A stretch of DNA of 64,000 bases from Thermaerobacter marianensis. GTDB lineage: Bacteria > Bacillota > Sulfobacillia > DVGY01. The stretch lies in contig DYGY01000009.1 in assembly GCA_020724425.1 (NCBI GenBank), positions 1,240-65,239 on the forward strand, read 5' to 3'. Made by a program: the position numbers and the translations under genes. This document shows positions 2,906-44,763 of the stretch, piece after piece (position 1 is the stretch's first letter; each line of letters begins with the position of its first letter). The notes below the pieces were generated by a model, which made no database searches, had not been told where the DNA came from, and saw only the letters and a program-made list of their open reading frames with translations.

Positions 2906-4027
2906 ATGGGGGTCATTTCAACAATGAAGAAGATGAGAAAGATGGGCATGCTTGCTTTAGTACTCGTCTTGTCCTTAACATTGCTAGCAGGTTGCGGTTC
3001 TAAGGATGACGCTAAGCAAGACGCTCCAGCACCAGCCCCAACTGGTGAAGAGCCATTAAAGATTGGTTTGGTTTTTGATGTTGGTGGTAGAGGTGACTTG
3101 TCCTTCAACGATATGGCATATGCCGGGTTGGAGAGAGCAAAGCTGGAGTATGGTGACAAAATCGAGATCGAATATCTAGAGCCAGCAGGTTCTGGAGATA
3201 ATCGTGAAGAGCTAATGCGTCTTTTGGCTCAGCAGGGTTATGATCTGATTTTTGGTGTTGGCTTCATGTTTACTGAGCACATTGATAAATTGTCTAAGGA
3301 GTTCCCAGATGTTAAGTTTGGTTTGATTGATGGTTACATTCCTGACTTAACTGCTGACTCCAATGTCGTTTCCTTGTTGTTCACCGAGCATGAGGGTTCC
3401 TTCTTGGTTGGTGCAGCTGCAGCATTGAAGAGTGAGAATAACTCTATTGGTTTCATTGGTGGTATGCAGATTCCTTTGATTCAGAAGTTTGAAGCTGGCT
3501 ATATGGCTGGTGCATACTATGTAAATCCTGATATTAAGATTCAAAGTGACTACATTGGTACCACTGGTGATGCTTTCCGTGATCCTGTTAAGGGCCGTGA
3601 ATTGGCATTGTCTCAGTATCAACGTGGTGCAGACATCATCTATCATGCTGCCGGTGCATCTGGTACAGGCTTGTTTGAAGCTGCTGTTCAGACCGGTAAC
3701 TTGGCAATTGGTGTAGATGCTGATCAGTCTCTAACAGTGTCTGAGGCTCAGCGTTCTCACGTGTTAACAAGTATGATGAAGCGTGTTGATGTTGCTGTAT
3801 ACAACACTATCGTTGACTTAGTTGAAGGTAACTTTGAAGGTGGCTACCATATGTTTGGTTTAGCTGAAGAAGGTGTTGGCTATGCAGTAAACGATTTCAA
3901 TCGTGAAATGATGGCTGACATTGTTGATGAACTAGAAGTTATCAAAGGAAAAATTATTGACGGTGAAATTGTAGTACCTGTTGACATGGAAGATTTGGCA
4001 GAGTTCAAAGCTTCTTTGGGCAACTAG
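2906..4027 (+). CDS. BMP-family (PnrA/Med-like) ABC transporter substrate-binding lipoprotein
   Basis: Signal peptide plus lipobox LLAGC. GLVFDVGGRGDLSFND and IGFIGGM motifs typical of basic-membrane-protein nucleoside-binding SBPs. Start may be 2924-2942. Confidence 0.8.
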   Translation: MGVISTMKKMRKMGMLALVLVLSLTLLAGCGSKDDAKQDAPAPAPTGEEPLKIGLVFDVGGRGDLSFNDMAYAGLERAKLEYGDKIEIEYLEPAGSGDNREELMRLLAQQGYDLIFGVGFMFTEHIDKLSKEFPDVKFGLIDGYIPDLTADSNVVSLLFTEHEGSFLVGAAAALKSENNSIGFIGGMQIPLIQKFEAGYMAGAYYVNPDIKIQSDYIGTTGDAFRDPVKGRELALSQYQRGADIIYHAAGASGTGLFEAAVQTGNLAIGVDADQSLTVSEAQRSHVLTSMMKRVDVAVYNTIVDLVEGNFEGGYHMFGLAEEGVGYAVNDFNREMMADIVDELEVIKGKIIDGEIVVPVDMEDLAEFKASLGN

Positions 4028-4055
4028 TTATTATTTCGCCCGATAGCCTATGAAA

Positions 4056-4096
4056 AGGTAGGGGTGACGCGTATTATTCGTCACCCCTATATTTTG
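4056..4096 (+). terminator. Intra-operon stem-loop (AGGGGTGACG...CGTCACCCCT) followed by ATATTTT; attenuating terminator between SBP and ATPase genes
   Basis: Perfect 10-bp inverted repeat with a T-rich tail in the 110-bp gap between the SBP gene and the ATPase gene. Confidence 0.55.
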
Positions 4097-4138
4097 CCTA
4101 AGGTAGGGCAGACAAGATTGGTTTGAGGAGAGAGGGAA

Positions 4139-5668
4139 ATGGTGTCCCGCGACCTAGTTATTGAGACAAAAGGTTTACGCAAGAGTTTTCCCGGGGTTCT
4201 CGCTAATGACCAGATTGACATTGATATCCGACGGGGTGAGGTTCACGCTATTGTTGGAGAGAATGGTGCTGGTAAGAGTACTCTGATGAAAATGCTTTGT
4301 GGTCTTTATCAACCGGATGCTGGTGAAATCTTTCTAAATGGTGAGAAGATTGAACTTAGTGATCCTGGTAAGGCTATTAAGTTGGGAATCGGTATGGTTC
4401 ATCAGCATTTTATGCTTATTCCCAGATTTTCTGTAACTGAGAACATCATCCTCGGTGCGGAGAATTCTAATCGTGGTGTTCTTAATTTTAAGAAAGCTCA
4501 TGCTGAGGTTGAGGAACTATGCAAGAGGTATGAGTTTGATCTTAATCCTAAAGAACTTGTTGCTGATTTGTCTGTTGGTGAACAACAGAGGGTTGAGATT
4601 TTGAAGGTTCTATATCGTGGTGCAGAAGTCATTATCATGGATGAACCTACAGCCGTACTCGTTCCTCAGGAAGTTGACGAGCTGTTTAAGAACTTAAAGC
4701 TTCTAGTTGAAGCAGGCAAGACTGTTATTTTCATCAGCCATAAATTAGATGAGGTTCTTGAGATTTCTGATAGGATTACTGTTTTAAGACGTGGTCAGAA
4801 GATTGGTACGGTTAATAAGGAAGATACCAACAAGAAGCATCTAGCTGAGATGATGGTTGGTCGTCCTGTGCTCTTCACCGTTGAGAAGGGTGAAGCAGAT
4901 GTGGAGGGTACTGTTCTTGAGATTAATGATTTACATTATTCAGAGAACGGACAGGCAATACTCAATGGGGTTAATTTCGAAGTTAAAGCCGGAGAAATTT
5001 ACGGAATTGCTGGTGTTGAAGGAAATGGACAGACGGAGTTAGTGGAAACTATTGTAGGTTTACGTAAGCCTGCAAGTGGGTCAGTTAAGCTTTTGGGCAA
5101 GGATATTACCGGTAAGGAAGTTGTGGATATCCGTAAGGAAGGAATCGGTTTTGTCCCGGAGGACAGGCATAAGAGAGGTTTGGTCTTGCCGATGACTGTA
5201 GCGGAGAATAGCATCCTTGGCAAGCATAATTCTAAAGATTTGAAAAAAAGCTTATTGCTTGACTATAAGAAGATTGAAGCACTAACAAAGCAGTATATCA
5301 CAGATTATGATATCCGTGTTTCTTCACCTCAGGTCGAGATCGGTAACTTATCTGGTGGTAATCAGCAGAAGGTTATTCTGGCAAGAGAGTTTAGTGGTGA
5401 ACCTAACTTGATTATTGCAGCTCAACCTACTAGAGGTCTCGATGTCGGTGCTATTGAGTTCGTGCGTAAAGAGTTAGTTAAAGCAAGGGATGCAGGGAAA
5501 GCTGTTTTGCTTATTTCTGCTGATCTTGAAGAAGTTATGGCTATGAGTGATAGAATCGGTGTTATCTATAATGGTCGTATCACCTCAGAATTCTTGCCCG
5601 AAGAGGTTGACCATCAACAGCTTGGTCATTACATGCTGGGTAGTGAGAAGGAGGGAGCTGCAAAATGA
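4139..5668 (+). CDS. ABC transporter ATP-binding protein with two fused ATPase domains (sugar/nucleoside type)
   Basis: 509 aa. Walker A GENGAGKST and a second P-loop GVEGNGQTE, signature LSVGEQQR and LSGGNQQK, Walker B IIMDEPT. Confidence 0.9.
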   Translation: MVSRDLVIETKGLRKSFPGVLANDQIDIDIRRGEVHAIVGENGAGKSTLMKMLCGLYQPDAGEIFLNGEKIELSDPGKAIKLGIGMVHQHFMLIPRFSVTENIILGAENSNRGVLNFKKAHAEVEELCKRYEFDLNPKELVADLSVGEQQRVEILKVLYRGAEVIIMDEPTAVLVPQEVDELFKNLKLLVEAGKTVIFISHKLDEVLEISDRITVLRRGQKIGTVNKEDTNKKHLAEMMVGRPVLFTVEKGEADVEGTVLEINDLHYSENGQAILNGVNFEVKAGEIYGIAGVEGNGQTELVETIVGLRKPASGSVKLLGKDITGKEVVDIRKEGIGFVPEDRHKRGLVLPMTVAENSILGKHNSKDLKKSLLLDYKKIEALTKQYITDYDIRVSSPQVEIGNLSGGNQQKVILAREFSGEPNLIIAAQPTRGLDVGAIEFVRKELVKARDAGKAVLLISADLEEVMAMSDRIGVIYNGRITSEFLPEEVDHQQLGHYMLGSEKEGAAK

Positions 5669-12096: not shown

Positions 12097-12132
12097 AGGT
12101 TAGAATCCTTCGCAAGAAGGGTTCTTTTTTAA
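12097..12132 (+). terminator. Rho-independent terminator (CCTTCGCAAGAAGG + TTCTTTTTT)
   Basis: Hairpin plus T-run immediately after the stop of the small membrane protein gene. Confidence 0.65.
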
Positions 12133-12141: not shown

Positions 12142-12201
12142 CGAACACCTGTTTGACAAGCGCAAGAAAAACAAGTATACTAGAAATGCGAACAAATGTT
12201 C
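12142..12201 (+). promoter_or_regulatory. Sigma-A promoter (TTGACA-17-TATACT) overlapped by two Cheo/LexA-type boxes (CGAACACCTGTTTG and CGAACAAATGTTC)
   Basis: TTGACA at 12153-12158, a 17-nt spacer, TATACT at 12176-12181. The first box (12142-12155) overlaps the -35 element; the second (12189-12201) lies just downstream of the -10. Both fit the Gram-positive SOS-box consensus CGAAC-N4-GTTCG. Confidence 0.65.
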
Positions 12202-12218
12202 CTTGAGGAGTGAGGAAA

Positions 12219-13388
12219 ATGACTCGCTATCTAGTCTACCTAGAAATCGAAGGCTTTTATTCAAGGGTATTAATAAGGCAGAAACCTGAATTAAAGAATC
12301 AGGCTATTCTGATAGTGGAAAAGGGTCAGGTAGTGGATGTTTCTCCGGAAGCTGCTGAGTTAGGGATTAAGGCTGGAGATAGTTTAAAAGCTTCACATAG
12401 AAAGCTTACGATTATTAATTATCGGGATATTGACGTTCAAGAGATGTTATATGCTTTGGGAAATATATACTATTCTTTAACACCGGAGATAGAGTTTGCT
12501 AGGGAGAATCAGGTCTGGTTAGGTATTACTGTCAGGTCAGATCAGGAAGTGGAAGAATTCATTCGTTATCTTAGTTCGCTTTTGGTACCTGAGTTTGGTC
12601 ACTGGTTAAGGTTTGGGTATTCCTCTTCGAAGATAGCTGCTAGAGTCGGTGCTGATTTAACTAAACTAGATAATTTACCTTATGGCTTTATGCAGAAGGT
12701 GATGAGCAGAGGTGTTATGGCGTTAGTGAAAAAGAGGGGTGCTTTGGCTAATGTTCCTTTGGAGTATCTCTGGTTTTTAGATAAAAAGAAACTTAGGGAG
12801 TTGGAGTTTAAGGGGATTAGCCGGTTAGGGCAGTTTCTTGAGCTTAATAGTTTTAGAGATAAGTTGCAGGTCAATTTCCCGGCAAGGATTGTTGAGAAGA
12901 GGGCTGTCTTAAAGGATGTTAGTTTCTTCTCTTTAAGGCATGTGATCCGTGAGATTGCTATTGGGTTAGGTAAAGAGTTAGATAGGGGTAATGAGGGGTT
13001 ACGGGTTATTGAATTAAGAGTGGTTTATGGTGGAAAGGTTATCAGGAAGCAAAGACATTTTAGCAGGGCTCAACAGAAGCTTGAAGGTGCCTTAGTTATT
13101 CTTTTAGATAAGGTTTTAGCTGAAATAGGGATAGACGAGGTTAGTGAATTAGTGGTCTATGGGTACCATTTTGAGAGCTTAAAGGTCGAGCAGTTAGATC
13201 TTTTTGGGCAGAAACAGGAAAGAGATATCGGTGAATTGATAGCTCATTTGAATAAGGGGTTAGGTAAAGAGAGGATTTATCTGGCTAATAGGATTGAGGT
13301 ATCAAGAAGAGAGAAGATGCTTAACTATTGGGATCCATATAGGAGTAGGGTTAGTTATGAAGATAATTTGCAAGCAAATAGAGGTTAA
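12219..13388 (+). CDS. imuB: ImuB-like Y-family DNA polymerase homolog (probably catalytically inactive)
   Basis: N-terminus YLVYLEIEGFYS aligns with the DinB/UmuC start (L.LD.D.FFASVE) but the catalytic aspartates are replaced. Sits directly upstream of the DnaE2-like gene. Start taken at ATG 12219 (GAGGAG RBS); the ORF track used GTG 12210. Confidence 0.6.
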   Translation: MTRYLVYLEIEGFYSRVLIRQKPELKNQAILIVEKGQVVDVSPEAAELGIKAGDSLKASHRKLTIINYRDIDVQEMLYALGNIYYSLTPEIEFARENQVWLGITVRSDQEVEEFIRYLSSLLVPEFGHWLRFGYSSSKIAARVGADLTKLDNLPYGFMQKVMSRGVMALVKKRGALANVPLEYLWFLDKKKLRELEFKGISRLGQFLELNSFRDKLQVNFPARIVEKRAVLKDVSFFSLRHVIREIAIGLGKELDRGNEGLRVIELRVVYGGKVIRKQRHFSRAQQKLEGALVILLDKVLAEIGIDEVSELVVYGYHFESLKVEQLDLFGQKQERDIGELIAHLNKGLGKERIYLANRIEVSRREKMLNYWDPYRSRVSYEDNLQANRG

Positions 13389-13416
13389 GGAGAAAAAATT
13401 TGGGTATAACAGGAAT

Positions 13417-13581
13417 ATGTATGAGATTTCTGAGGTTTTAGATAGCTGGAGGGACATAGGGGCTTGGTGGGAAGATGAAGAGGAAAAGAGGTTCTGGCGG
13501 GTTTCTTTGCATAATGATCTGACTGCAGAAATTTTCTATATTCCTAATAAAAAGAAATGGTATCTATATAGATTGTGGTAG
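13417..13581 (+). CDS. Small hypothetical protein (54 aa, acidic/Trp-rich) between imuB-like and dnaE2-like genes
   Basis: ATG at 13417 (MYEISEVLDSWRDIGAWWEDEEEKRFW...) in the 200-bp gap. The ORF track extends it upstream to 13294, overlapping imuB in another frame. No recognisable domain. Confidence 0.3.
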   Translation: MYEISEVLDSWRDIGAWWEDEEEKRFWRVSLHNDLTAEIFYIPNKKKWYLYRLW

Positions 13582-13594
13582 GGGGAAGAACCTT

Positions 13595-16500
13595 GTGGAT
13601 TTTGTACATCTGCATGTTCACTCTCCGTTTTCTTTTTTGGACGGTGGTAGTGAGATTAGGAATTTAGTGAAAAGGGCCAAGGAATATGGGATGTCAGCTC
13701 TGGCATTAACTGATCATAACAGTTTGGCAGGAGCTGTACAGTTTCAAAAGGAGTGCGAAAAAGAAGGACTTAAAGCTATCCATGGAGCAGAAGTTACTTT
13801 AGAAAGTGGAGGACATCTAGTTCTTTTAGCTCGGGGACAGGAAGGATATCATAATCTATCTAGATTGCTGACTAAGGCTCATTTAGTTAATGAACGATTA
13901 CAGCCTATGGTCAGCATTAGATCTCTTTGGGAATATCAAGAGGGATTAATTGCTTTATCTGGCTGTCGTAGAGGAGAAGTTCCCTCTTTGCTCTTGAAGG
14001 GAAAACTAAAAGAGGCGAAAGAGAAAGCAGAGATATACAGGGATATCTTTGGGGGGAGGTTTTATCTAGAAATCCAAAACCTTTATATACCCGGGGATGT
14101 TGCTTTAAACAGAAAGCTTAAAGAGTTAGGGGAAGAAACAGGGATTAAATTAGCAGGTACTAATAATGTGCATTACCTAGACAAAGAGGATTTTCCTGTT
14201 CATGATCTTTTAACCTGTATTCGTCTGGGCTTAACTTTAGAGGAGGTCCATCAAGAACGGAGATTAAATGCAGAGAACTATCTTAAATCAACAGCTAAGA
14301 TGTATGAGGTATTAGCTGACTATCCCGAAGCTATTGAAAATACTCTGGCTATTGCTGATTTATGTGAGCCAGGTTTAGATATGACCAAGAGATATTATCC
14401 TGCCTATTTGTATCCCAAAGAGTATCGGAGTGCAACAGCCTACTTAAAAGAACTAGTCTATGCTGGAGCTAAAGAGAAGTATGGGAGGATATCTAGAACT
14501 TTACGGGAACGGATAGAGCATGAACTCTTTGTTATTGATAGGCTTAAGTATAGCGACTATTTCCTTTTAGTATGGGATGTGGTTCAGCATGCTAAGGAAA
14601 AGGGGATAAGGTATGCTGGTAGGGGTTCTGCTGCTGATTCTGTTATAGCATATAGCTTATCTATTACAGAGGTTGATGCTTTTAAGAGAGGTCTGCTATT
14701 TGAAAGATTTATCTCTTTAGAAAGAGCTGAAAGTCCTGATATTGATATTGATTTTGATGCTAGGTACAGGGATGATGTCAGTGCTTATGTATATGTAAAG
14801 TATGGGGAAAGGCATGTGGCAGCTGTAGCTACCTATCATACGTTTCAGGCTAGATCCGCTTTAAGGGAGCTGGGTAAGGTTTTAGGGTTTTCTGCAAAGG
14901 AGGCTGATATTTTAGCTAAAAGGGTACCCTATTATCTTTCTGATATGGGGGATCTCTTTAACAGGGTACCTGAAATTAAGAATATGAATCTCTCTTCTGT
15001 TAAGTATAAACAGCTACTGTATTATGCTAAAAAGATTATTGATCTGCCAAGGCATCTTGGGACTCATTTAGGAGGTTTAGTTATTACCAATCTACCGGTA
15101 ACTGATCTATCTCCTTTACAAAAGTCAGCTAAAGGGGTTAATGTTATCGGGTTTGACAAAAGGGCTGTAGAGGATTTAGGGTTGTTAAAACTAGACCTTT
15201 TATCATTACGCACCATGTCAGCTATTGAAGACAGTATTAAAATCATTAGGGATTTGGATTATGAAAAGATACCTTTAGATGATAAAGAGACTTACAAGAT
15301 GTTGCATGCAGGAGAGACTGTAGGGGTCTTTCAGTTGGAGAGTGCTGCTCAAAGAGCTTTACAATCAAAATTAAAAGCAGATAATTTTGAGGATATTGTA
15401 GCAAGTTTAGCTTTGATTAGACCAGGACCTATTCAGGGGAACATGGTTGATCCTTTTATAGCTAGACGGAAAGGAAAAGAGAAAATTAGCTATCTTCATC
15501 CTGATTTAGAGCCTATTCTAAAAAAGACTTATGGGGTTGTTTTGTTTCAGGAACAGGTGATAGAGATTGCTTCAGTTATTGCCGGCTTTACTCCAGGAGA
15601 ATCAGATCAGTTACGGAGGGTTATGACCCATGCACGTTCTAGCAGGGATATGGAGGAAATAGGGGGGGTCTTTTTAAGAAAAGCTCAAGCAAATGGGGTT
15701 AGTATACAGACAGCCAAGGAAATCTTTTCATATATTGCTGGGTATGCCAGTTATGGCTTTAATGAGGCTCATGCCACAGCGTTTGCCTATACTGCTTACA
15801 AAACAGCCTATCTTCTAAGGCATTATCCAGCAGAATACTATTGCTCCTTATTAAATCATCAACCTATGGGATATTACCCGGTCAATACTCTTTGCCTATT
15901 AGCTAAACAGAGGGGTATACAGGTGTTGCCTTTAGATATTAATGAAAGTGAGATAGATTTTTCTGTAGAGAAGGGCAATATCCGGATAGGCCTTAAACAG
16001 CTTAAAGGACTAAGGGAAAAGGAACAGCAAGCAATTAGTACTACAAGATCTACGGGCAGGTACCTATCATACAAGGATTTTATTGAACGTTTGGGTTCTA
16101 GAGTATGTAAGGATTCCTTGAGCAACCTTGTTAAGGTAGGGGCTTTTGATAGCTTAGAGGAAAACAGAAGGGCTCTCTTATGGCAAAAACCAGTGGCAGA
16201 TGCCTCTCCTTTAGAGAAATGGGCCTATGAGATAGAGCTAACAGGAATAGAGAGTCAAGTATCCTTTATGGGGTTAACAAGAGATAGATTAAAAGGATTT
16301 ACTTTAAGCACAGAAGTGAAAAGGAAGATTGGTAAGAAGATATGGTTGGCAGGCTGGCCAATTAGGCCTCATAGGCCACCAACCAAAAGTGGGAAGGTTG
16401 TTGTCTTTTTTTCTCTACAGGATGAGGTTGGTTTAGCAGAGGTGACTATGTTCACATCATCCTATGAAAAATATGGACAGCTAATTTTTGGGGAACATAT

Positions 16501-16600
16501 ACCTCTAGGGATTTATGGGGAGGTATTCTCTCGGGATGGAGCTATAAGTGTGAATGCAGAAGTTGTTAAAGACTTGCGGGATTTGTTAACAAAGGAATGA
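13595..16600 (+). CDS. dnaE2: Error-prone DNA polymerase III alpha subunit, DnaE2-type
   Basis: 1001 aa. N-terminal PHP domain HLHVHSPFSFLDGGS, polymerase core motifs, C-terminal OB fold. Its short length relative to replicative DnaE/PolC, imuB adjacency and SOS boxes indicate a DnaE2/ImuC-type enzyme. GTG start after GGGGGAAG. Confidence 0.75.
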   Translation: MDFVHLHVHSPFSFLDGGSEIRNLVKRAKEYGMSALALTDHNSLAGAVQFQKECEKEGLKAIHGAEVTLESGGHLVLLARGQEGYHNLSRLLTKAHLVNERLQPMVSIRSLWEYQEGLIALSGCRRGEVPSLLLKGKLKEAKEKAEIYRDIFGGRFYLEIQNLYIPGDVALNRKLKELGEETGIKLAGTNNVHYLDKEDFPVHDLLTCIRLGLTLEEVHQERRLNAENYLKSTAKMYEVLADYPEAIENTLAIADLCEPGLDMTKRYYPAYLYPKEYRSATAYLKELVYAGAKEKYGRISRTLRERIEHELFVIDRLKYSDYFLLVWDVVQHAKEKGIRYAGRGSAADSVIAYSLSITEVDAFKRGLLFERFISLERAESPDIDIDFDARYRDDVSAYVYVKYGERHVAAVATYHTFQARSALRELGKVLGFSAKEADILAKRVPYYLSDMGDLFNRVPEIKNMNLSSVKYKQLLYYAKKIIDLPRHLGTHLGGLVITNLPVTDLSPLQKSAKGVNVIGFDKRAVEDLGLLKLDLLSLRTMSAIEDSIKIIRDLDYEKIPLDDKETYKMLHAGETVGVFQLESAAQRALQSKLKADNFEDIVASLALIRPGPIQGNMVDPFIARRKGKEKISYLHPDLEPILKKTYGVVLFQEQVIEIASVIAGFTPGESDQLRRVMTHARSSRDMEEIGGVFLRKAQANGVSIQTAKEIFSYIAGYASYGFNEAHATAFAYTAYKTAYLLRHYPAEYYCSLLNHQPMGYYPVNTLCLLAKQRGIQVLPLDINESEIDFSVEKGNIRIGLKQLKGLREKEQQAISTTRSTGRYLSYKDFIERLGSRVCKDSLSNLVKVGAFDSLEENRRALLWQKPVADASPLEKWAYEIELTGIESQVSFMGLTRDRLKGFTLSTEVKRKIGKKIWLAGWPIRPHRPPTKSGKVVVFFSLQDEVGLAEVTMFTSSYEKYGQLIFGEHIPLGIYGEVFSRDGAISVNAEVVKDLRDLLTKE

Positions 16601-16645
16601 TGGGAACCCATGCCGAATTCTCTAGCAGAAAGGAGTTGAATCTAT

Positions 16646-16876
16646 ATGATGCAATTTATTGACCTTATAATTTTGGCAGCTATTTACTGGCTTTTAGCTA
16701 CCTCCATTAATTCTCTTAAATTGGATAATCTTTTTAGTGATCCTGATAGTGAAGGGGCCAAGACCATTAAAGGTTTCATTGTTATCATTGCCGGCTGGCT
16801 AATCTTTAAGTATGTTGCCTTACCTTTATTCGCTTTTATCTTCCAATTAATAAATACAATTAGGTGGATGTTCTAG
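16646..16876 (+). CDS. Small membrane protein (hypothetical)
   Basis: 76 aa, two hydrophobic segments. Confidence 0.35.
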   Translation: MMQFIDLIILAAIYWLLATSINSLKLDNLFSDPDSEGAKTIKGFIVIIAGWLIFKYVALPLFAFIFQLINTIRWMF

Positions 16877-16880
16877 GGGA

Positions 16881-17525
16881 ATGTTAGAGAAGATTTATGA
16901 AGAGTTATATAACGCTTATGGTCCCCAGGACTGGTGGCCAGCTGATGAACCTTTTGAAGTGGTTGTTGGGGCTATTCTGACTCAGAATGTCTCCTGGAGC
17001 AATGTTATTAAGGCTATCAGGAACCTAAAAGAAAGAGATGTGCTTAGTTTTGAGGGCATGAAGAACATACCTACTGAAGAATTAGCCTTGTTGATTAAAC
17101 CTACCGGATACTATAACTCTAAGGCAAAGAAATTGAAGGCTTTTCTAAGTTATCTTGAGGAGTATGGTTCCTTAGAGAATCTATTCAGAAAGCCTTTAGA
17201 GTCTTTAAGGACAGAGCTCCAAAATGTCTATGGTATCGGTCCAGAGACTGCTGATGCTATACTCTGTTATGCAGGAGAGTATCCTGTTATGGTTATTGAT
17301 GCCTACACCATCAGGATTCTAAGCAGGATGGGGATTATTGATGTGAAAGCAAACTATCATGAGGTCCAGGAGCTTTTCCATAGGGAATTAGCAGGGGATA
17401 CCCAGTTATATAATGAGTATCATGCTTTGTTGACACGGTTGGCCAAAGAGGTCTGTCTGAAGAAGAAGCCATTGTGTGCTAGCTGTTCCTTGGTTCAATA
17501 TTGCAAACAAATAGGGGTAGAGTAG
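16881..17525 (+). CDS. HhH-GPD superfamily DNA glycosylase (endonuclease III-like) with C-terminal 4Fe-4S cluster loop
   Basis: VVVGAILTQNVSW, helix-hairpin-helix GIGPETAD, and C-terminal Cys cluster C..C..C...C. Confidence 0.7.
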   Translation: MLEKIYEELYNAYGPQDWWPADEPFEVVVGAILTQNVSWSNVIKAIRNLKERDVLSFEGMKNIPTEELALLIKPTGYYNSKAKKLKAFLSYLEEYGSLENLFRKPLESLRTELQNVYGIGPETADAILCYAGEYPVMVIDAYTIRILSRMGIIDVKANYHEVQELFHRELAGDTQLYNEYHALLTRLAKEVCLKKKPLCASCSLVQYCKQIGVE

Positions 17526-17668
17526 GCATGTCTTACTATATTTTGCAGGGGAAATATGAGAAATGTCGAACAATGGCAATATCAGAATAGGAAAGGGGTA
17601 TATACCACAAGGAACTTTAGAGCCGAATAGTGCTAGTTCAAAATTAGTATCTTAGGGGGCAGATATTT

Positions 17669-18769
17669 ATGATGATGTTGACCAAAGATACGCTTCATGA
17701 GCTAATGCAGATAGAGGCTGAGTTTTGTGTTTCAATCTTTATGCATACTCATCGTGCTGGCAAGGAGATAGAGCAGAACTACATTCGCTTTAAGAATCTG
17801 ATTCAAAAGACTGAGTCAGATCTATTGAATCGGGGTCTGCGTTCTCGAGAGGTCAGTAGTCTTTTGGAGCCTGCTAGGAAGCTATTGGCTGATGGTCATT
17901 TCTGGCGTCATCAGAGTGATGGTTTGGCGGTTTTTATTGCTCCTGATTTTTTCAAGTATTTCCGGGTACCACATGGTTTTGAAGAATCTTTGGTGGTTTC
18001 TGATAGGTTCTATATTAAACCCTTAATGCCTTTGCTGACTGGTGATGGCATTTTTTATATTCTGGCAGTGAGTCAGAATAGGGTGAGACTATTGCAGGGG
18101 ACAAAACATAGTGTAAGTGAAGAGGATCTAGAAGATCTGGCAGTTCAGTTGCAGCAAGCATTGGAATATGAATATGAAAAACAGCTACAGATGCGGAGTC
18201 AGGGACCTGAGGGTATGATCTATCACGGTCATGGGGGAGATGAAAGCAGAGAGAGTGTTCTTAAGTATCTAAGGCTAGTGGATTCTGGTTTGAGAGACTT
18301 TCTTAGACATGAAAGAGCTCCTCTTGTTTTTGCTGGTGTGGAATATCTGTTTCCGATGTATAAAGAGGTGAATACCTATCCTTTTCTGCTTGAGAGAGCG
18401 CTGCCGGGTAATCCTGAGGATGTTAGTGCGGGAGAATTGCATAGGCAGGCCTGGAATATAGTTGAACCATATTTTAAGAGAGAACAACAGCAAATTATTG
18501 AACAGTATCAAGTGTTAGCTGGAACAGGTCTATCGGGGTCAGCGGTTGAAGAGGTAATGTCTGCGGCGTACTTTGGTAGGGTAGAGGTATTGATGATTGA
18601 ATCGGGGAGCAGGGTTCTTGGTAGTTATGATAGGGAACATGATAGGGTAGAGGTGGGAGATAGAGATCTTTTAAATCTCATGGCTGTCTATACTCTATTA
18701 AATCGTGGCACAGTATACGTTATGAATGATGTTCCAGATAGGCCGGTAGCGGCCATCTTCAGGTACTAG
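17669..18769 (+). CDS. Hypothetical protein (366 aa), partner of rubredoxin
   Basis: No confident family assignment. Its 3' end (18680-18769) is repeated at 24007-24107. Confidence 0.5.
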   Translation: MMMLTKDTLHELMQIEAEFCVSIFMHTHRAGKEIEQNYIRFKNLIQKTESDLLNRGLRSREVSSLLEPARKLLADGHFWRHQSDGLAVFIAPDFFKYFRVPHGFEESLVVSDRFYIKPLMPLLTGDGIFYILAVSQNRVRLLQGTKHSVSEEDLEDLAVQLQQALEYEYEKQLQMRSQGPEGMIYHGHGGDESRESVLKYLRLVDSGLRDFLRHERAPLVFAGVEYLFPMYKEVNTYPFLLERALPGNPEDVSAGELHRQAWNIVEPYFKREQQQIIEQYQVLAGTGLSGSAVEEVMSAAYFGRVEVLMIESGSRVLGSYDREHDRVEVGDRDLLNLMAVYTLLNRGTVYVMNDVPDRPVAAIFRY

Positions 18770-18822
18770 TTAGAGTATTCCCCATAACCTGGATAGAATG
18801 GTGTGAGGAAAGGGAATAGAGT

Positions 18823-19080
18823 ATGGCCAAATATGTGTGTAGAGCTTGTGGTTATGAATACTTTGATCCAGTTGGGGACATTATTTGTGTTTTAGGGATA
18901 GATGATTTGCCAGAGTCAGGGGTTTGTCCAAATCGTGCTCTGCAATCAGTTGTTAGACAGTCTGACGTACGGATCTGTGCGGGAAATGCCCAAAAACTGG
19001 GCATTTCTACCGCGATTTTTAAAATGAAGGCTCCCAGGGCATGCACTTCTTATTGTGACAGAAGGATGAAAATATTATAA
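18823..19080 (+). pseudogene. Disrupted rubredoxin (N-terminal CxxC knuckle intact, second CPxCG knuckle lost)
   Basis: MAKYVCRACGYEYFDP... matches the intact rubredoxin at 24173-24343 for about the first 30 codons and then diverges (VCPNRALQ instead of VCPVCGA). Confidence 0.55.

Positions 19081-24406: not shown

Positions 24407-24424
<18 letters not shown>
24379..24424. terminator. Hairpin ATCGGCATAG...CTATGCCGAT + TTTT (bidirectional)
   Basis: 10-bp inverted repeat downstream of rubredoxin and of the recombinase 3' fragment. Confidence 0.5.
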
Positions 24425-26161
<1,737 letters not shown>

Positions 26162-26166
26162 TTATT

Positions 26167-26310
26167 TCAAGATTTGCTGTACCGTTCAGTATTCATGCGT
26201 TTCAGCTTGTCATAGGCAGTTTCTTTGGCAGTGCTGCTGACCGCTGATTCTATAATGTAAAGCGTATCACCGATTACCTTTTCGGTAACGCTAATGGTCT
26301 TCTCAGCCAT
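26167..26310 (-). CDS. Small hypothetical protein (47 aa) of the integrated element
   Basis: ATG at 26310 preceded by GGAGGAG (rc of 26318-26324). The ORF track extends it to 26451 without an RBS. Confidence 0.35.
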   Translation of the reverse strand: MAEKTISVTEKVIGDTLYIIESAVSSTAKETAYDKLKRMNTERYSKS

Positions 26311-26548
26311 AAGGCACTCCTCCTTTCTGACCTTGGGGGTAGGGGGTAATAAATCCTTACACCCTTTCGAACGTGCAATGGGCGTGGGTTTTCGCGCAAA
26401 AAAACGCGGATTCAAAGGGTGTATTAAGGGGACAACCGGGATAAAATGCATATAATAATAAACTTGATGTGTATTTCATCTTGAAAAGTACCATTTTTAA
26501 GTGAAAAGGCACAGCAGGGTATTCCACTGTGCCTTTTCGTCATATATT

Positions 26549-26962
26549 CTAACCGTTGGTCTCGGTATTCATCTGAATTACCTTCACTACCTCCGGGCGG
26601 ATAAGTTTTCCGTCAATAAACTCAAAGGTAAGGTAACCCATCTGGTCGAGCAGGGCAAACTTCTCTGAGAGTGCCCTCACGCTGACAGGGCTTCTGCAGA
26701 TAACCCAGTAGTAGCTGAAATCACCGAATGCAATAGGCTTAGAACCGGACTCCATATCCGGCATAAACTCCGATATAAATACCTTTTTGCCAAGGATGGT
26801 ATCGTCGCTGTTGCGCCAGAGGTAGTTTGCGGCTTCATCAGTCATTGTGCGAAGGGCAAGGGCTGTGTCGCACATGGCATGGGCGTACTCATCGGAATAG
26901 TAAGTGTGCTGCGGTCGCAGCAGAGTACCTTCCTTATTCATTTTCATAAGTGGATAATTCAT
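26549..26962 (-). CDS. Hypothetical protein of the integrated element (137 aa)
   Basis: Clean ORF in the GC-richer island. No recognisable motif. Confidence 0.4.
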   Translation of the reverse strand: MNYPLMKMNKEGTLLRPQHTYYSDEYAHAMCDTALALRTMTDEAANYLWRNSDDTILGKKVFISEFMPDMESGSKPIAFGDFSYYWVICRSPVSVRALSEKFALLDQMGYLTFEFIDGKLIRPEVVKVIQMNTETNG

Positions 26963-27077
26963 GATTTTTCCTCCTCAAATTAAGATGTTTGAATGTGATT
27001 GATGGTATTTCCTGTAGATACAATTGCTGAGCGTTCGTCATGATGAATCGCTATAGCTATTCCTCCCTCTGGTGATA

Positions 27078-27400
27078 CTTCCGGTGACAGAAGTGACGGT
27101 TCAGTGACAGTAATTTTGATGAACTGTCACGCTGAAAAGCGGCTCGTAGCAAGGCTTTTAAAGCTCAGTGACAAAAGTGACAGAACTTTTCATTTTATAC
27201 TCACAACGACTCATAATCTTTTCCTTGTTCTCTGTACTTTTCCAAACTTTATTTTTCCCGCTAAAAAGTTTGAAAGACTGTCACTGCTGTCACTTGTGGC
27301 TGGAAACCCTTGATATATGGGCTTTTTGACGGTCACAGTTATCTGTGAGAACTGTCACTCGACTGTCACTTCTGTCACTTTTAAGCAAGAAATTCTGTGC
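27078..27400. repeat. Iteron-like array: about 12 copies of GTGACAG/CTGTCAC in two opposed clusters flanking an AT-rich spacer (putative origin)
   Basis: GTGACAG at about 27085, 27103, 27177, with variants GTGACGG and GTGACAA. CTGTCAC at about 27124, 27279, 27288, 27351, 27362, 27372. AT-rich 27185-27270 lies between the clusters. Immediately adjacent to the P4-type primase remnant. Confidence 0.6.
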
Positions 27401-27493
27401 TGTCATAACCATAAGCCTTCTTGTACTGCTCCTTTACCTCAATAGTAAGGGTGAGGTTTTTATAATAGGTGCCTTTATTGGTATGAACGGTCA

Positions 27494-28477
27494 TTATGTC
27501 TCTCTGAACTCTTTGGCTGTCTTGGCAAAGCCGTTATTGTTGTCATGGCACCATGCCCTGTAAACATCGTAGATGCGGCTCGTTGTAGCGGAATCATTAA
27601 ACTTGCCGCCTGACCGTTGGCACATACATTCCTCATAGAAGGAGATCACAGTATTGTTCTCCGACATATATTGTTCTCTTGCAAGGCTTACACTGTCCGG
27701 CTCGGAAAAGCTGTATTCGTGTGCAATGACCGTCTGCAGCGCCTTAACAGCCTTGTAGACTATGCCATCACGCTCGGCATACATTTTGTGTCAAGGAGTG
27801 TTTTGTCCTGCTGGTTCTTTGGAATAACATTAGGGCAACGTACCACTATGATGCGGTCATAGACCCATTTGCCATCATCGCCGCCAAACTTGGGAAGTCT
27901 GTTCATGCAAAACCAGGGCAGCCCGTTGTAGGTGAACTCAAAGGTGCTGTCCTTTGAACTCGGCATAAAGCCTGTCGCCGCCGGTAATTTTTTAAATGTT
28001 TTCAACTCATCTACGGATAGAAAACTCATGTCAGAGCTACCGGCAAGGCGGGTGCCATATATCGCGCCGGTGCCGAAACGCGCTTCAATCTCCTTAAGGT
28101 CGATTCCTATGAAGTTACCCTTGCCGAGCAACCGCTCTACAAGACTCTTTAGCTGAGATTTGCCGGTGTCGCCATCGCCAACAAAGTGCTTTTTTCATTA
28201 GCCATCCCTTGATGTTGGAGATGCATACACCGATAAACTCAAGGAGCAGGTGGTCTATGGCCTTGTCTCCGTCTGTGAGTGTGTGCATATACCTGTCGAA
28301 GACCGGCGTAGGCGTTTCCCTTCTCGTCCAGTTGCACGGAATCTGAATGGTGGAGAGGATATCCGGGGAGTGTGGTACAAGAATGACTTCATCTGCAGTA
28401 ATACGGAGCAGACCATTTTTCGATTTTTGACATTGTAGTGAAGTACTTGTTGTTTGGATTAGGTTAAAGGGAAACAA
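27494..28477 (-). pseudogene. Phage/plasmid P4-family primase-helicase C-terminal region, frameshifted (3 ORF fragments)
   Basis: Reading through the fragments gives ...GDGDTGKSQL... (Walker A) followed by FIGIDLKEIEARFG and a C-terminal PriCT-like region. A frameshift lies at the A6 run near 28195, and another between 27760 and 27784. Confidence 0.6.
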
Positions 28478-28503
28478 AATTACATATTGCTAATACTCGT
28501 TGT

Positions 28504-29436
28504 TCATTTTAGCCCGGCTTTATACATCAATTCTTCTATAATAACCCTATATTTTAAAATGTGCGGCTTAATATCTTGCTGGGTGGTGTTAAACCAAATT
28601 TTATGGGCTGAATAATTGCCGAGATCCTTAAATAGTACCATGTCCTGACAAGTATTTGCTGACAGTGCCAAAGTGGTATTTTGCTCCGCATTTCTGATTA
28701 TTTTATCAAGGGTTGAGTGCCGCCCACTGTTTCCGGTGATTTCCTCCTCAATACCAAGGTTTTGGTATGATAGTACCAAAAGCCCTTCTAATAGCCGCCT
28801 CATCATCACTGCTGTACAGTCAAAGAGATTATTCTCATAACTCGCGTTAATCTGCTTGCATAAGGATCGAATATTAGGCGAGAGGTTTTCGAAAATTGGA
28901 GTTGGAAGAATCGTTCCGTCTTGCTCAATACTAGTTTTGTCTTCATCTTCCCAGTGGTTTATATCATCAATCCATTTTTCCATAGCATCAGACCATTGCG
29001 ACCAATTTCGAGATGAATTGATCAGCCTGTTTACTTCAGTCTGTAAATCCTTCAAAATTTGGTTATCTGTCCAGCCTGATTTTCTTAGGGCTAATATGTA
29101 TCTGTAAAGGATATCATCTACTTTATAATCATTCCAATATGCATATATTTTTTTGCACTTGTTCTTGATATGGGATATCTCTTGGTCAATAGGGTTTTGA
29201 GACCTGTTGTAAGCTATTCCCCCAAGCTTGTTTAAAAATTCATTAACTGATTCTTGAGTTAAGGCTCCATCTTTGTCATAATGAAAATACTGTTTTATGC
29301 CAATATCAATGCATTCAATCAGCAGTTCATATGGATACTTCCTAATGACTTGTGCCAATTGTGCTTTGCCCCTCTCGTTAAGCGAATATGGCGCTATTTT
29401 TTCATTCACCATGCTTTCAATCTTTTTACGCCCCAT
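28504..29436 (-). CDS. DUF4145-like domain protein (Abi-like accessory gene of type I R-M loci)
   Basis: C-terminal region (ANTCQDMVLFKDLGNYSAHKIWF) resembles DUF4145. The gene is markedly AT-richer than the neighbouring hsd genes. Confidence 0.45.
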   Translation of the reverse strand: MGRKKIESMVNEKIAPYSLNERGKAQLAQVIRKYPYELLIECIDIGIKQYFHYDKDGALTQESVNEFLNKLGGIAYNRSQNPIDQEISHIKNKCKKIYAYWNDYKVDDILYRYILALRKSGWTDNQILKDLQTEVNRLINSSRNWSQWSDAMEKWIDDINHWEDEDKTSIEQDGTILPTPIFENLSPNIRSLCKQINASYENNLFDCTAVMMRRLLEGLLVLSYQNLGIEEEITGNSGRHSTLDKIIRNAEQNTTLALSANTCQDMVLFKDLGNYSAHKIWFNTTQQDIKPHILKYRVIIEELMYKAGLK

Positions 29437-29447
29437 AAAGATTTACC

Positions 29448-30791
29448 TTATTTCAATTTCTCACAAAGAGGCAGGACTTCTTCGATTTTAGCAACAATGC
29501 GCTTTTGCTCAGCAAGGGGAGGGAGGGGAATCAATTGCTGTTTCAGCAGTACATAATGTCGTGCATATCCTCTGTTTCTCAACTGCCCTGAAGCATATAT
29601 CATCCAATAATACAGGAACTTGGGATATACAAGGATGCCTTTGTGAAATTTAGTGCCATCCGCTCCAATCACGAAAGGAAAATCGATATACTTCACATTC
29701 CTTGTATGATCTCCAAACATAACCAAAGGCAGATCATTAATAACTTTCTCCCTTTGGTTTGTATAACCGTCAATAAGTGACTGGCCCTGGCTAACTACAG
29801 GAAAATCGCCTTCCGGCGATATTTCCTTGGTTTGAATCTGATTTTCTCTGTTACCGACTGCATAAGTAACACTCTCAATTTTTGTCCAAAACCAGCTCTC
29901 CGGAATATCAAACGGTATCTCATCCTCTGAAATTTCAGGTAATGGCTTTTCTTTTTTGATTTTACCTTCCTTGATGAGTCGCTGCTTTTCGGCCTGAATC
30001 TGTTGATAAAGTTCCTCGCCAGTTCCTTCCTCCGGGCGCTGTTCGACCAGTTTGCCCTGGATTGCCAACTGGAGGATGGATTTCTGCAGGTCGCTCGGAA
30101 AACGCTTATTAAGCTCCTCCAACTTGTTCCATGCCTTTTCATAGCGATCTACATACGGTAGCAATTCTTCGATTTTAGCAACAATGCGCTTTTGCTCAGC
30201 AAGGGGAGGGAGGGGAATCAATTGCTGTTTCAGCAGTACATAATGTCGTGCATATCCTCTGTTTCTCAACTGCCCTGAAGCATATATCATCCAATAATAC
30301 AGGAACTTGGGATATACAAGGATGCCTTTGTGAAATTTAGTGCCATCCGCTCCAATCACGAAAGGAAAATCGATATACTTCACATTCCTTGTATGATCTC
30401 CAAACATAACCAAAGGCAGATCATTAATAACTTTCTCCCTTTGGTTTGTATAACCGTCAATAAGTGACTGGCCCTGGCTAACTACAGGAAAATCGCCTTC
30501 CGGCGATATTTCCTTGGTTTGAATCTGATTTTCTCTGTTACCGACTGCATAAGTAACACTCTCAATTTTTGTCCAAAACCAGCTCTCCGGAATATCAAAC
30601 GGTATCTCATCCTCTGAAATTTCAGGTAATGGCTTTTCTTTTTTGATTTTACCTTCCTTGATGAGTCGCTGCTTTTCGGCCTGAATCTGTTGATAAAGTT
30701 CCTCGCCAGTTCCTTCCTCCGGGCGCTGTTCGACCAGTTTGCCCTGGATTGCCAACTGAAGAATGCTGTTTTTCAATTCCTGTGGGGTCAT
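29448..30791 (-). CDS. hsdS: Type I restriction-modification specificity subunit HsdS with two identical target-recognition domains
   Basis: 447 aa. Conserved HsdS spacer motifs (LPPLAEQKRIVAKIEE). Residues about 7-226 are repeated exactly at about 237-447. Confidence 0.85.
   Translation of the reverse strand: MTPQELKNSILQLAIQGKLVEQRPEEGTGEELYQQIQAEKQRLIKEGKIKKEKPLPEISEDEIPFDIPESWFWTKIESVTYAVGNRENQIQTKEISPEGDFPVVSQGQSLIDGYTNQREKVINDLPLVMFGDHTRNVKYIDFPFVIGADGTKFHKGILVYPKFLYYWMIYASGQLRNRGYARHYVLLKQQLIPLPPLAEQKRIVAKIEELLPYVDRYEKAWNKLEELNKRFPSDLQKSILQLAIQGKLVEQRPEEGTGEELYQQIQAEKQRLIKEGKIKKEKPLPEISEDEIPFDIPESWFWTKIESVTYAVGNRENQIQTKEISPEGDFPVVSQGQSLIDGYTNQREKVINDLPLVMFGDHTRNVKYIDFPFVIGADGTKFHKGILVYPKFLYYWMIYASGQLRNRGYARHYVLLKQQLIPLPPLAEQKRIVAKIEEVLPLCEKLK
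29478..30756. repeat. Perfect 690-bp direct tandem duplication inside hsdS (copy 1 about 29478-30167, copy 2 about 30168-30756)
   Basis: CTTCGATTTTAGCAACAATGCGCTTTTGCTCAGCAAGGGGAGGGAGGGG... occurs at 29477 and again at 30167. Identity continues for about 590 bp until 30757. Confidence 0.9.
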
Positions 30792-36971: not shown

Positions 36972-36983
36972 TTTACCACCCCG

Positions 36984-37718
36984 TTAATCTTTTAATCCCA
37001 GGAGGTAGAAGAATTCCTGGTCTGCTTTACCGGTTAAGGGCTGCTGGTAGAAGAGTTGAGCTTCTTTTATGGCTATGGTTGTTTGGGGACCGAAGTAGCC
37101 ATCGATATTACCTGGGTTAAATCCTAGTGCTCTTAAGCGATGCTGAAGGATTAATACGTCTTTTCCTGTGGAGCCTTCCTTTAAGTTTCGGTTAAAGGAA
37201 GACTCAGGCAAGGCACCATGGAAAACCACTTTGGTACCTAGAGGGATCATCTCAAATAGTTCTTCTACCTGTTTGTTATGCATTCTGATGCAACCAGCAC
37301 TTTCATTATCACCAATAGTCCAGGGTTCATCTGTACCGTGGATTCCATAGATACCCCAGGGTACATTAACTCCCAACCAGCGAGTACCAAAGCCACCACC
37401 CCAGTCTTTGCTTTTTGAGATAATTCTGAATTCACCAACTGGCGTTGGGGTCTCTGGTTTACCAATTGCCACTGTATATTCCTTTTCAAGGACATTATCG
37501 ATATAGACCTGTAATTTCCGTTTATCTAAATCTACGGCTATGAGATAATGGGAGGGGTCCTGCTTATCTTCTGGAGCTAAGGTTAACCAGGTTAGCTGAT
37601 TCTCCATAACCAATGGATAGGTTAACAGGAAAGGTGCTCCATAATAGGGGCTGGCTAGAAGAAGAATAGCTAATGTCACAAAAGCGACAATCTTTGACAT
37701 AATATCACCTACCATCAA
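36984..37718 (-). CDS. L,D-transpeptidase (YkuD domain) with C-terminal peptidoglycan-binding domain
   Basis: Catalytic motif HGT...GCIRM. C-terminus LQHRLRALGF...DGYFGPQT = PG_binding_1. Confidence 0.85.
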   Translation of the reverse strand: MMVGDIMSKIVAFVTLAILLLASPYYGAPFLLTYPLVMENQLTWLTLAPEDKQDPSHYLIAVDLDKRKLQVYIDNVLEKEYTVAIGKPETPTPVGEFRIISKSKDWGGGFGTRWLGVNVPWGIYGIHGTDEPWTIGDNESAGCIRMHNKQVEELFEMIPLGTKVVFHGALPESSFNRNLKEGSTGKDVLILQHRLRALGFNPGNIDGYFGPQTTIAIKEAQLFYQQPLTGKADQEFFYLLGLKD

Positions 37719-37796
37719 TGTCTAAACATATATCTATGTGAGGATTAGTGTAATTATGAAGAGGGAAAACGGGGTCAGGGGATAAATATACAGGAG

Positions 37797-38267: not shown

Positions 38268-38277
38268 GGGGACTCAT

Positions 38278-42965: not shown

Positions 42966-43016
42966 CCTCGAATTAGAGTTTTTCCTATCGGGGAAACTCT
43001 AGACGAGGTGATTTGA

Positions 43017-43418: not shown

Positions 43419-43456
43419 ATGGTGCCCAGTTCTCTAGATACCATGATATAATATAG

Positions 43457-44308: not shown

Positions 44309-44324
44309 AAAGGGGGTTCCTGAG

Positions 44325-44750: not shown

Positions 44751-44763
44751 GGAGCTGAGGAGA

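Follow-up and report, generated by a model that had tools for sequence, protein, structure and literature searches.

A probable LexA-controlled translesion operon with a split ImuB on a Thermaerobacter marianensis contig

Can a gene for a Y-family pseudo-polymerase and a paralogue of the DNA polymerase III (Pol III) alpha subunit, set behind two LexA/Cheo-type boxes, make up a damage-inducible mutagenesis system when imuA is missing and the ImuB-like protein is short? The question is raised by contig DYGY01000009.1 of a Thermaerobacter marianensis assembly (GCA_020724425.1), of which we analysed a stretch of 64,000 nucleotides (nt; positions 1,240 to 65,239 of the forward strand). We call this whole 64-kb stretch the window, and all coordinates are counted from its first letter. 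The initial annotation had described a cassette of two genes, imuB-like and dnaE2-like. There are three, because an open reading frame (ORF) for 74 amino acids (aa) at 13357-13581 had been overlooked. The locus is very probably a LexA-repressed translesion operon, damage-induced and mutagenic, of the iPolY(ImuY)-ImuB-C-DnaE2 type, in which iPolY is an inactive Y-family polymerase and ImuB-C is ImuB's C-terminal domain. Its parts, with their ribosome-binding sites (RBS), are as follows.

12102-12131, + strand: intrinsic terminator of the upstream gene for a 63-aa membrane protein (10-bp stem, 4-nt loop, T-run)
12142-12155, + strand: candidate LexA/Cheo-type box 1, CGAACACCTGTTTG, matching the pattern CGAACN4GTTYS
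12153-12181, + strand: sigma-A type promoter, TTGACA-17-TATACT
12189-12202, + strand: candidate LexA/Cheo-type box 2, CGAACAAATGTTCC, between the -10 hexamer and the RBS
12219-13388, + strand: predicted inactive Y-family polymerase, iPolY/ImuY-like, N-terminal part of the split ImuB, 389 aa
13191-13205, + strand: putative beta-clamp-binding motif QLDLF of iPolY (aa 325-329)
13224-13343, + strand: C-terminal tail of iPolY, a RecA-NT-like helix-strand followed by SRRExMLxxWDPxR
13357-13581, + strand: standalone ImuB-C domain protein (Pfam DUF6504), 74 aa, with its own RBS (GGAG, 13342-13345) and an ATG start
13595-16600, + strand: DnaE2-type C-family DNA polymerase, 1001 aa, GTG start, RBS GGGGGAAG at 13581-13588
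14165-14167, + strand: codon of N191, the eighth PHP metal ligand of the polymerase

The promoter and the split ImuB

The promoter matches 11 of 12 consensus positions and ranks highest among the promoter-like sites between 11000 and 18000. Its -35 hexamer TTGACA (12153-12158) and its -10 hexamer TATACT (12176-12181) are 17 nt apart. The final 3 nt of box 1 are the opening 3 nt of the -35 hexamer, and box 2 begins 8 nt past the -10 hexamer and spans the expected transcription start. The pattern CGAACN4GTTYS is found nowhere else in the window, the only perfect GAACN4GTTC of which lies inside box 2. Shuffled versions of the window contain 0.09 matches on average, and none of 100 shuffles reaches two. 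Because the boxes are the sole matches and so few are expected, we regard their occurrence as real and non-random, and the near-consensus promoter with two boxes stands as it was initially annotated. A looser scan of the window, which tolerated 2 mismatches, returned further sites elsewhere only at the chance rate.

The two-box layout is conserved in Syntrophomonas relatives. In two of these (L011 and L068), whose polymerases are ~50% identical to that of the window, TTGACC abuts a GAACATATGTTC-type box at the position equivalent to box 1. A second box, GAACAAATGTTCG, lies between the -10 hexamer and the RBS, the place where GGAACAAATGTTCG, nearly identical to box 2, sits in both loci. The only perfect GAACN4GTTC sites in the 11-15 kb around L004, L011, L016 and L068 lie at the 5' end of the cassette or a short way upstream of it; they are at most ~50 nt from the annotated iPolY start in L004, L011 and L068, and 195 nt upstream of it in L016, where the start is uncertain. 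Three Armatimonadota loci (L017, L018, L019) carry a different box variant at the same place of the promoter, two CAAACAAyTGTTyg palindromes ~50 bp apart. The boxes of the window are predicted to bind LexA, and the operon would then be induced by DNA damage.

Downstream of the promoter, the genes for the Y-family protein, the 74-aa protein and the C-family polymerase are translationally packed. The small ORF overlaps the end of the Y-family gene by 32 nt, in the +1 frame, and stops 13 nt ahead of the start codon of the polymerase. We took ATG 12219 as the start of iPolY because an RBS (GAGGAG) lies at 12205-12210; the start given by the ORF finder, GTG 12210, has no usable RBS.

The sole Pfam domain found in iPolY is IMS (40 bits). 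Set against human Pol iota and Mycobacterium Dpo4/DinB in alignments, the protein has LEIE in place of the catalytic VDLD and NQ in place of DE, which agrees with the earlier description of a pseudo-polymerase without the catalytic aspartates. None of the proteins in an alignment of the family (20 iPolY-family proteins, from an exhaustive HMMER search) has DE at the catalytic site. An AF2 model built on this alignment (predicted local distance difference test [pLDDT] 85.5) is matched over its full length by Dpo4, Pol kappa and Pol iota in Foldseek (360-400 columns, E ~1e-18), which argues that palm, fingers, thumb and little finger are all retained. As judged from the alignment and the model, iPolY is a catalytically dead yet complete Y-family fold. 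It is also, by its sequence, extremely divergent and isolated in sequence space. A word-indexed search of 5.8 billion proteins found only iPolY itself or a 99% variant, a tblastn search against plasmids gave no match, and an exhaustive HMMER search of 1.84 billion representative proteins returned 41 matches at E <= 1e-3, the best of which, itself excluded, is 26% identical. In 17 related loci, a homologue of iPolY immediately precedes the DnaE2-clade gene.

The C-terminal part of iPolY holds the features expected of a scaffold. By the established QL[SD]LF consensus, QLDLF reads as a clamp motif; Q325 is invariant and QxxLF is the consensus in the family alignment. It is followed by the helix-strand DIGELIAHLNKGLGKERIYLA (aa 336-356) and by SRRExMLxxWDPxR (aa 362-375), of which R363, R364 and L368 are nearly invariant in the same alignment. 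The model predicts a helix at 331-348, and the hydrophobic pattern after the clamp motif (I337/I341/L344/L348...I353-L355) is the one described for the RecA N-terminal oligomerisation motif (RecA-NT) in ImuB and UmuC (PMC6511836).

The initial annotation had remarked that the ImuB homologue is shorter than classical ImuB and that its C-terminal interaction region may differ. The shortness is real (389 aa), and it is explained by the 74-aa gene, which encodes the ImuB-C domain separately. Gene calling recognises this ORF in two further, independent assemblies of the species (L001 and L002, 99.6% identical to the window). Small ORFs at the same position were detected by phmmer in the Syntrophomonas/Syntrophomonadaceae metagenome-assembled genomes (MAGs) L004, L011, L016 and L068 (E 1e-14 to 8e-12) and in the Bacillota MAG L003 (E 2e-8). 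A profile made from these small ORFs detects three more in Bacillota (L006, L008, L009). Overall, at least eight Bacillota loci besides the window have a standalone ImuB-C, with overlaps of differing length. The ImuB-C profile also matches, weakly (E 6e-4 to 2e-3), the C-terminal 70-80 residues of Armatimonadota Y-family proteins of 472-497 aa (L010, L012, L013, L070), and the domain was recognised by eye at the C-termini of those of L017 and L018. W31, W38, R48 and W68 are invariant across the standalone and the fused forms. Because the domain occurs both detached and fused to a Y-family protein, we identified it as ImuB-C. All seven of these Armatimonadota/Chthonomonadales loci (L010, L012, L013, L017, L018, L019, L070) encode a fused ImuB-like protein (472-503 aa), and the gene for a DnaE2-clade polymerase follows directly; for L019 the fusion was inferred from the identical length of 503 aa and the near-identity to L017/L018. 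No imuA-like ORF was noticed upstream of the Armatimonadota cassettes, the flanks of which were not scanned for imuA.

A tblastn search of 7.3 Gb of plasmids with the 74-aa protein gave two matches only. One is a Thermaerobacter 'DUF6504 family protein'. The other is an 80-aa 'hypothetical protein' of Deinococcus sp. D7000, in an operon with the order lexA, Y-family polymerase, hypothetical protein, Pol III alpha; this plasmid cassette shows the same split with a 4-nt overlap, and the ImuB-C profile matches its 80-aa protein with a probability of 97.4% (E 1.3e-11, 78 columns). The word-indexed search found only the 74-aa protein itself or a 99% variant, and a search of the same kind with the ImuB-C profile found 6 proteins. 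An AF2 model of the 74-aa protein (pLDDT 87) is a six-strand beta protein with no fold match in the PDB, consistent with the published description of ImuB-C as a beta-barrel whose fold is novel. A small protein of Syntrophomonas wolfei was one of the seeds for the definition of ImuB-C (Aravind et al. 2013, PMC3765255).

The polymerase and the competing readings

The Pfam domains of the 1001-aa polymerase are PHP, palm/thumb/fingers, HhH and OB, and its catalytic residues D382, D384 and D534 are intact. It has no C-terminal tau-binding domain: no residue follows the OB domain, against 78-98 in DnaE1 sequences. We built two neighbour-joining trees with bootstrap from 57 full-length DnaE sequences of related loci, E. 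coli DnaE1, four DnaE2 from proteobacterial megaplasmids (each adjoining imuA and imuB), T. roseum DnaE2 and a Streptomyces plasmid DnaE; the polymerase of the Deinococcus cassette was added later. Both trees place the window polymerase in a clade (100% bootstrap) with all cassette-linked polymerases of Bacillota and Armatimonadota and every reference DnaE2. E. coli DnaE1, the DnaE1 of Clostridia, Melainabacteria, Nitrospina and Desulfobacterales, and the DnaE3 of Bacilli are outside this clade. The trees therefore bear out the assignment of the Pol III alpha paralogue as DnaE2-like; a grouping with the replicative DnaE1 or DnaE3, which the initial annotation had named beforehand as telling against that assignment, is not seen. 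The window polymerase branches outside the proteobacterial DnaE2 group, and its closest relatives are from unclassified Bacillota (53% identity) and Syntrophomonadaceae (~50%).

The nine-residue PHP signature of the window polymerase is HHDHEHCNH. Its eighth ligand, an Asp in active PHP exonucleases, is N191 by alignment to Taq Pol III alpha, and a column analysis finds the same Asn in nearly all cassette-linked DnaE sequences and in T. roseum DnaE2. Eight of the nine ligands are kept across Bacillota, Armatimonadota and Thermomicrobium. The PHP sites are decayed in proteobacterial DnaE2 and, by eye in a pairwise alignment, in the Deinococcus cassette polymerase. In M. tuberculosis DnaE1, the PHP exonuclease is lost upon the substitution D226N at this ligand, and zinc is still bound (PMC5636811). 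Judging by the alignment, N191 should be a natural counterpart of D226N and should abolish proofreading. The signature and its correspondence to D226N go slightly beyond the literature consulted here and offer a simple, testable explanation for a lack of proofreading. It is conceivable, although we think it rather unlikely, that the PHP centre of the Bacillota/Armatimonadota/Thermomicrobium branch is preserved as a functional site and is not a relic, either as a docking site for ImuB-C, proofreading-dead but needed for the structure, or as a residual or altered nuclease. If so, the mutasome would have started out in this RecA-dependent form with a split ImuB, and low fidelity would have been reached by one substitution that N191D could reverse.

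Several observations weigh against a translesion operon of the iPolY-ImuB-C-DnaE2 type. The Pfam match that identifies the 74-aa protein (PF20114, DUF6504) barely exceeds its cut-off (24.6 bits for a cut-off of 24.2), and PF20114 gives no match to the canonical ImuB of S. meliloti or to the ImuB-like protein of T. roseum. In hhalign and hmmsearch comparisons with four proteobacterial ImuB C-termini, the ImuB-C profile matches canonical ImuB1 weakly (E 1e-3, probability 21%), although the alignment falls on the WW motif. The NCBIfam model for DnaE1 scores slightly higher on the polymerase (875 bits) than the error-prone model (825 bits); both scores are below the cut-offs, so automatic annotation would call it a plain Pol III alpha. 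The PHP site, with eight ligands kept across phyla, could still do something. A RecA-NT motif in iPolY is plausible at most: a Pfam DUF4113 scan of iPolY did not detect it, a PDB profile search with the iPolY motif found no RecA, and hhalign of the tail against RecA N-termini gave the expected register with a weak score (E 1.5e-3, probability 16%), in a comparison with five RecA N-termini, of which that of E. coli was taken from a fetched sequence. Among the scanned ORFs of the window, lexA, recA, polC and a second dnaE are all absent, and both the repressor and the organism's replicative polymerase are thus out of view. Finally, experiments exist for no Bacillota member.

The near-intact PHP site lends some weight to a different role for the same complex, which would be damage-induced and yet not primarily mutagenic: a gap-filling or repair polymerase whose PHP zinc site would retain some nuclease or other activity, perhaps working with the DNA glycosylase encoded downstream. 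HHDHEHCNH keeps eight of its nine ligands where the proteobacterial and Deinococcus sites have decayed, and the HhH-GPD glycosylase gene is on the same strand with no terminator between. The effect of D226N at the very ligand that is altered here speaks against an active exonuclease, the glycosylase gene is not conserved beside related cassettes, and UV mutagenesis in Deinococcus requires the imuY and dnaE2 of the homologous cassette. We consider this role improbable.

Still less probable is an operon outside the SOS response, with palindromes that bind some regulator besides LexA or no protein at all. The window has no lexA and neither box is a perfect palindrome. Each box is, however, a single position off the Bacillus consensus CGAACN4GTTCG, the two lie on the -35 hexamer and on the transcription start with equivalents conserved in relatives, and homologous cassettes elsewhere carry lexA in the operon itself (PMC8072749).

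We give hardly any credence to a role of the 1001-aa protein in replication, be it as the replicase or as an associated DnaE (DnaE1, or a DnaE3-like partner of PolC), beside an unrelated, decayed DinB. The slight advantage of the DnaE1 model, the PHP ligands and the three intact polymerase aspartates would fit it, and the missing C-terminal domain is not diagnostic, since the DnaE3 of Bacilli (L058, L060) also end at OB. Nevertheless, the 100% clade excludes all sampled DnaE1 and DnaE3, and the gene stands behind two LexA-type boxes and is linked to iPolY and ImuB-C across phyla. Moreover, the region of the internal clamp motif (QADMF in E. coli), of which QxxxF is kept in every replicative DnaE1 sampled, is deleted here; this deletion is in keeping, on sequence grounds, with access to the clamp by way of the Y-family protein.

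A frameshift mutation, an assembly error (pseudogene) or programmed +1 frameshifting into one ImuB is a scarcely credible origin of the split, and we rejected a frameshift or pseudogene: the overlapping ORFs are in different frames, the +1 frame extends without a stop for 21 codons ahead of the ATG and fused versions are known in Armatimonadota, but the same split is found in three independent assemblies of the species, in the other Bacillota loci and on the Deinococcus plasmid, no slippery sequence is evident, an RBS and an ATG belong to the small gene itself, and recurrent standalone ImuB-C genes have been published (PMC3765255, PMC6511836).

Surroundings of the operon and related loci

The terminator at 12102-12131 marks the 5' boundary of the operon. 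Three genes follow on its 3' side.

16646-16876, + strand: 76-aa predicted membrane protein, a possible 3' extension of the operon, 45 nt after dnaE2
16881-17525, + strand: HhH-GPD DNA glycosylase, a possible 3' extension of the operon, after a gap of 4 nt
17669-19080 region, directly downstream of the glycosylase gene: 366-aa protein with matches to several Pfam families of bacterial eRF1-like proteins (baeRF)

From 16600 to 17669 no terminator-like site is present, and the genes for the 76-aa protein and the glycosylase may be co-transcribed with the SOS operon; their membership is uncertain. The best NCBIfam match of the glycosylase is 3-methyladenine DNA glycosylase, below the cut-off. The flanking genes (those for the 63-aa and 76-aa membrane proteins, the glycosylase and the baeRF protein) are not conserved beside related cassettes and were therefore not counted as core parts. 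The baeRF gene is followed, still within 17669-19080, by an 85-aa ORF without a family match, for which no link to the cassette was found. A genomic island was considered as the origin of the region and rejected, because GC is flat (0.39-0.45).

The 3' end of dnaE2 (16560-16625) varies within the species. An indel extends the protein to 1009 aa in L001 and L002 (Logan assemblies of the same species, 99.6% identical); the 1001-aa form is that of the window, of a JGI contig and of another Logan contig, and relatives end at the same point.

Some related loci have features of their own. The MAG JAKAUI01 (Bacillota YP3.bin27) has two closely related DnaE2-clade polymerases on different contigs (L006 and L066), with an iPolY/ImuB-C pair detected upstream at L006 only; some Deinococcus species likewise have two cassettes. 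On the T. roseum megaplasmid (L078, 2703-8168), a RecA-domain protein (357 aa) and an ImuB-like 'hypothetical protein' (416 aa) accompany an error-prone polymerase, which has the PHP motif HHDHEHCNH and is the best plasmid match to the window polymerase (36.8% identity). In the Syntrophomonadaceae chromosome OY781889.1 (L004), a gene for an SOS-response-associated peptidase (SRAP; 3729-4442) is directly upstream of iPolY-ImuB-C-DnaE2, and the only perfect GAACN4GTTC box lies between this gene and the cassette. An SRAP gene is also directly upstream in three of the fetched proteobacterial imuA-imuB-dnaE2 loci.

Elsewhere in the window, a type I-C CRISPR-Cas locus (54322-64000) encodes Cas3, Csd1/Cas8c, Cas7 and Cas1, with unscanned ORFs at the positions expected for Cas5 and Cas4. 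Its array has at least 26 repeats of GTCGCTCCCCGTGCGGGAGCGTGGATTGAAAC, with a period of ~66, from ~62329 past the end of the window; the 200-aa ORF at 62949-63551 inside it is spurious. In the region 24407-28504, a fragment (232 aa) from a large serine recombinase, with zinc ribbon and DUF4368 but without the catalytic domain, is followed by ~3.4 kb with only short, broken minus-strand ORFs that look like decayed mobile-element genes. A type I restriction-modification system (28504-34614) adjoins it. The + strand genes of 1-24000 and 36000-48000 go with a strongly positive GC skew, 0.1-0.38 in most bins of 2 kb, consistent with a strongly strand-biased, Bacillota-like chromosome. No Rfam families and no tRNA genes were found in the window.

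Proposed mechanism and known systems

We propose the following mechanism. In undamaged cells, LexA dimers on both boxes, one overlapping the -35 hexamer and one at the transcription start, would shut the strong sigma-A promoter. Upon DNA damage, RecA-stimulated self-cleavage of LexA would free the promoter, and the three proteins would be produced from their tightly coupled genes. The dead Y-family polymerase would act as a scaffold that binds the beta clamp through QLDLF, and its RecA-NT-like helix probably binds RecA, as a stand-in for the absent ImuA. The 74-aa beta-barrel, which is ImuB's C-terminal domain in detached form, probably attaches to the polymerase at its PHP domain. Synthesis would fall to the DnaE2-type polymerase, the active site of which is intact, with its own clamp motif gone and an Asp-to-Asn change at a PHP zinc ligand. 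Because it has no clamp motif of its own and carries this natural change, the proofreading-dead DnaE2 would copy past lesions at low fidelity, giving rise to damage-induced mutations. What the sequence itself shows is the architecture of the operon, how far it is conserved and which key residues are kept or lost; the binding of LexA, the contacts between the proteins, the participation of RecA and the mutagenic output are inferred.

The current picture of SOS mutagenesis is unchanged by this locus. It would be a clean example of a split-ImuB mutasome under the control of LexA boxes, from an uncultured Bacillota-like lineage that branches deeply. Among lineages with PolC-type replication, DnaE2 systems are seldom found. 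This system, which combines a polymerase scoring below the cut-offs, a Y-family protein with almost no detectable relatives and a 74-aa gene that is easily overlooked, would go unnoticed in standard annotation. The split forms of Bacillota and Deinococcus, set against the fused forms of Armatimonadota, provide material for the evolution of ImuB.

The locus is not a canonical ImuA-ImuB-DnaE2 system, since imuA is absent from the window and ImuB is split. The canonical mutasome (ImuA-ImuB-DnaE2 [ImuC] of M. tuberculosis, C. crescentus and P. aeruginosa) shares with it a dead Y-family scaffold with a clamp motif, ImuB-C, DnaE2 and, by prediction for the window, control by LexA, and the iPolY profile matches the ImuB of S. 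meliloti (E 3.9e-15). It differs in that the window has no imuA, ImuB is divided over two genes, the polymerase is outside the proteobacterial DnaE2 and the PHP site is nearly intact. The initial annotation was right that there is no imuA: there is none between the terminator and dnaE2 or elsewhere among the scanned ORFs of the window, and its absence is the rule for the published variant of the system (PMC6511836, PMC8072749, PMC12926913).

Two other kinds of SOS-controlled systems share single elements with the locus. The UmuD'/YqjX-type polymerases, which are SOS-induced, multisubunit and error-prone, have a small accessory subunit beside a Y-family subunit, for which a RecA-NT-like motif has been proposed as the means of binding RecA (PMC6511836). 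However, this Y-family subunit is an active polymerase, there is no C-family polymerase, and UmuD' and YqjX are unrelated to ImuB-C. The lexA-imuB-C-polY locus of Geobacter sulfurreducens has a standalone ImuB-C with a Y-family gene, is LexA-controlled and is damage-induced (PMC6511836); its Y-family polymerase is active and comes without DnaE2, whereas that of the window is predicted to be dead and comes with DnaE2.

The closest system, and the only version of this cassette with experimental support, is that of Deinococcus. Its cassette has an inactive Y-family protein, an ~80-aa ImuB-C and DnaE2 in the same order, without imuA and under SOS control, as is predicted for the window. In Deinococcus deserti, induction of the operon needs RecA, and UV mutagenesis needs ImuY, DnaE2 and RecA; UV mutagenesis in D. 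ficus also depends on ImuY and DnaE2 (PMC8072749). The Deinococcus and window polymerases align end to end (29% identity, E 4e-131) and belong to the common DnaE2 clade. The Y-family proteins match at the profile level only, BLASTP being not significant (E 1.1). Furthermore, the Deinococcus operons carry lexA, whereas the operon of the window has predicted LexA boxes only, and the PHP site of the Deinococcus polymerase appears decayed (by eye), whereas the window polymerase keeps eight of nine ligands. The phyla differ as well.

A description that fits the locus is that of operons of the Kyrpidia tusciae type. Standalone ImuB-C beside DnaE2, with or without an inactive DinB, was described by Aravind et al. 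2013 (PMC3765255), and operons with an inactive Y-family polymerase, standalone ImuB-C and DnaE2 by Timinskas and Venclovas 2019, with the Firmicute Kyrpidia tusciae as an example (PMC6511836). Genomes with operons of this type have no imuA, and RecA is presumed to substitute for it (PMC6511836). Timinskas et al. 2026 named the group DnaE2X and regard iPolY and ImuB-C as a split ImuB; theirs is the only DnaE2 complex found with all three types of replication system (PMC12926913). The putative DnaE2X-iPolY-ImuB-C-RecA mutasome, with its inactive PolY carrying a RecA-NT motif, standalone ImuB-C and DnaE2, corresponds in its architecture to what we found, the RecA-NT motif being a putative one here; we assign the window polymerase to DnaE2X by its architecture and by our own neighbour-joining trees, not by the tree of those authors. 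On its sequence, the locus is a very divergent member of this already published iPolY/ImuY-ImuB-C-DnaE2 ("DnaE2X") cassette type.

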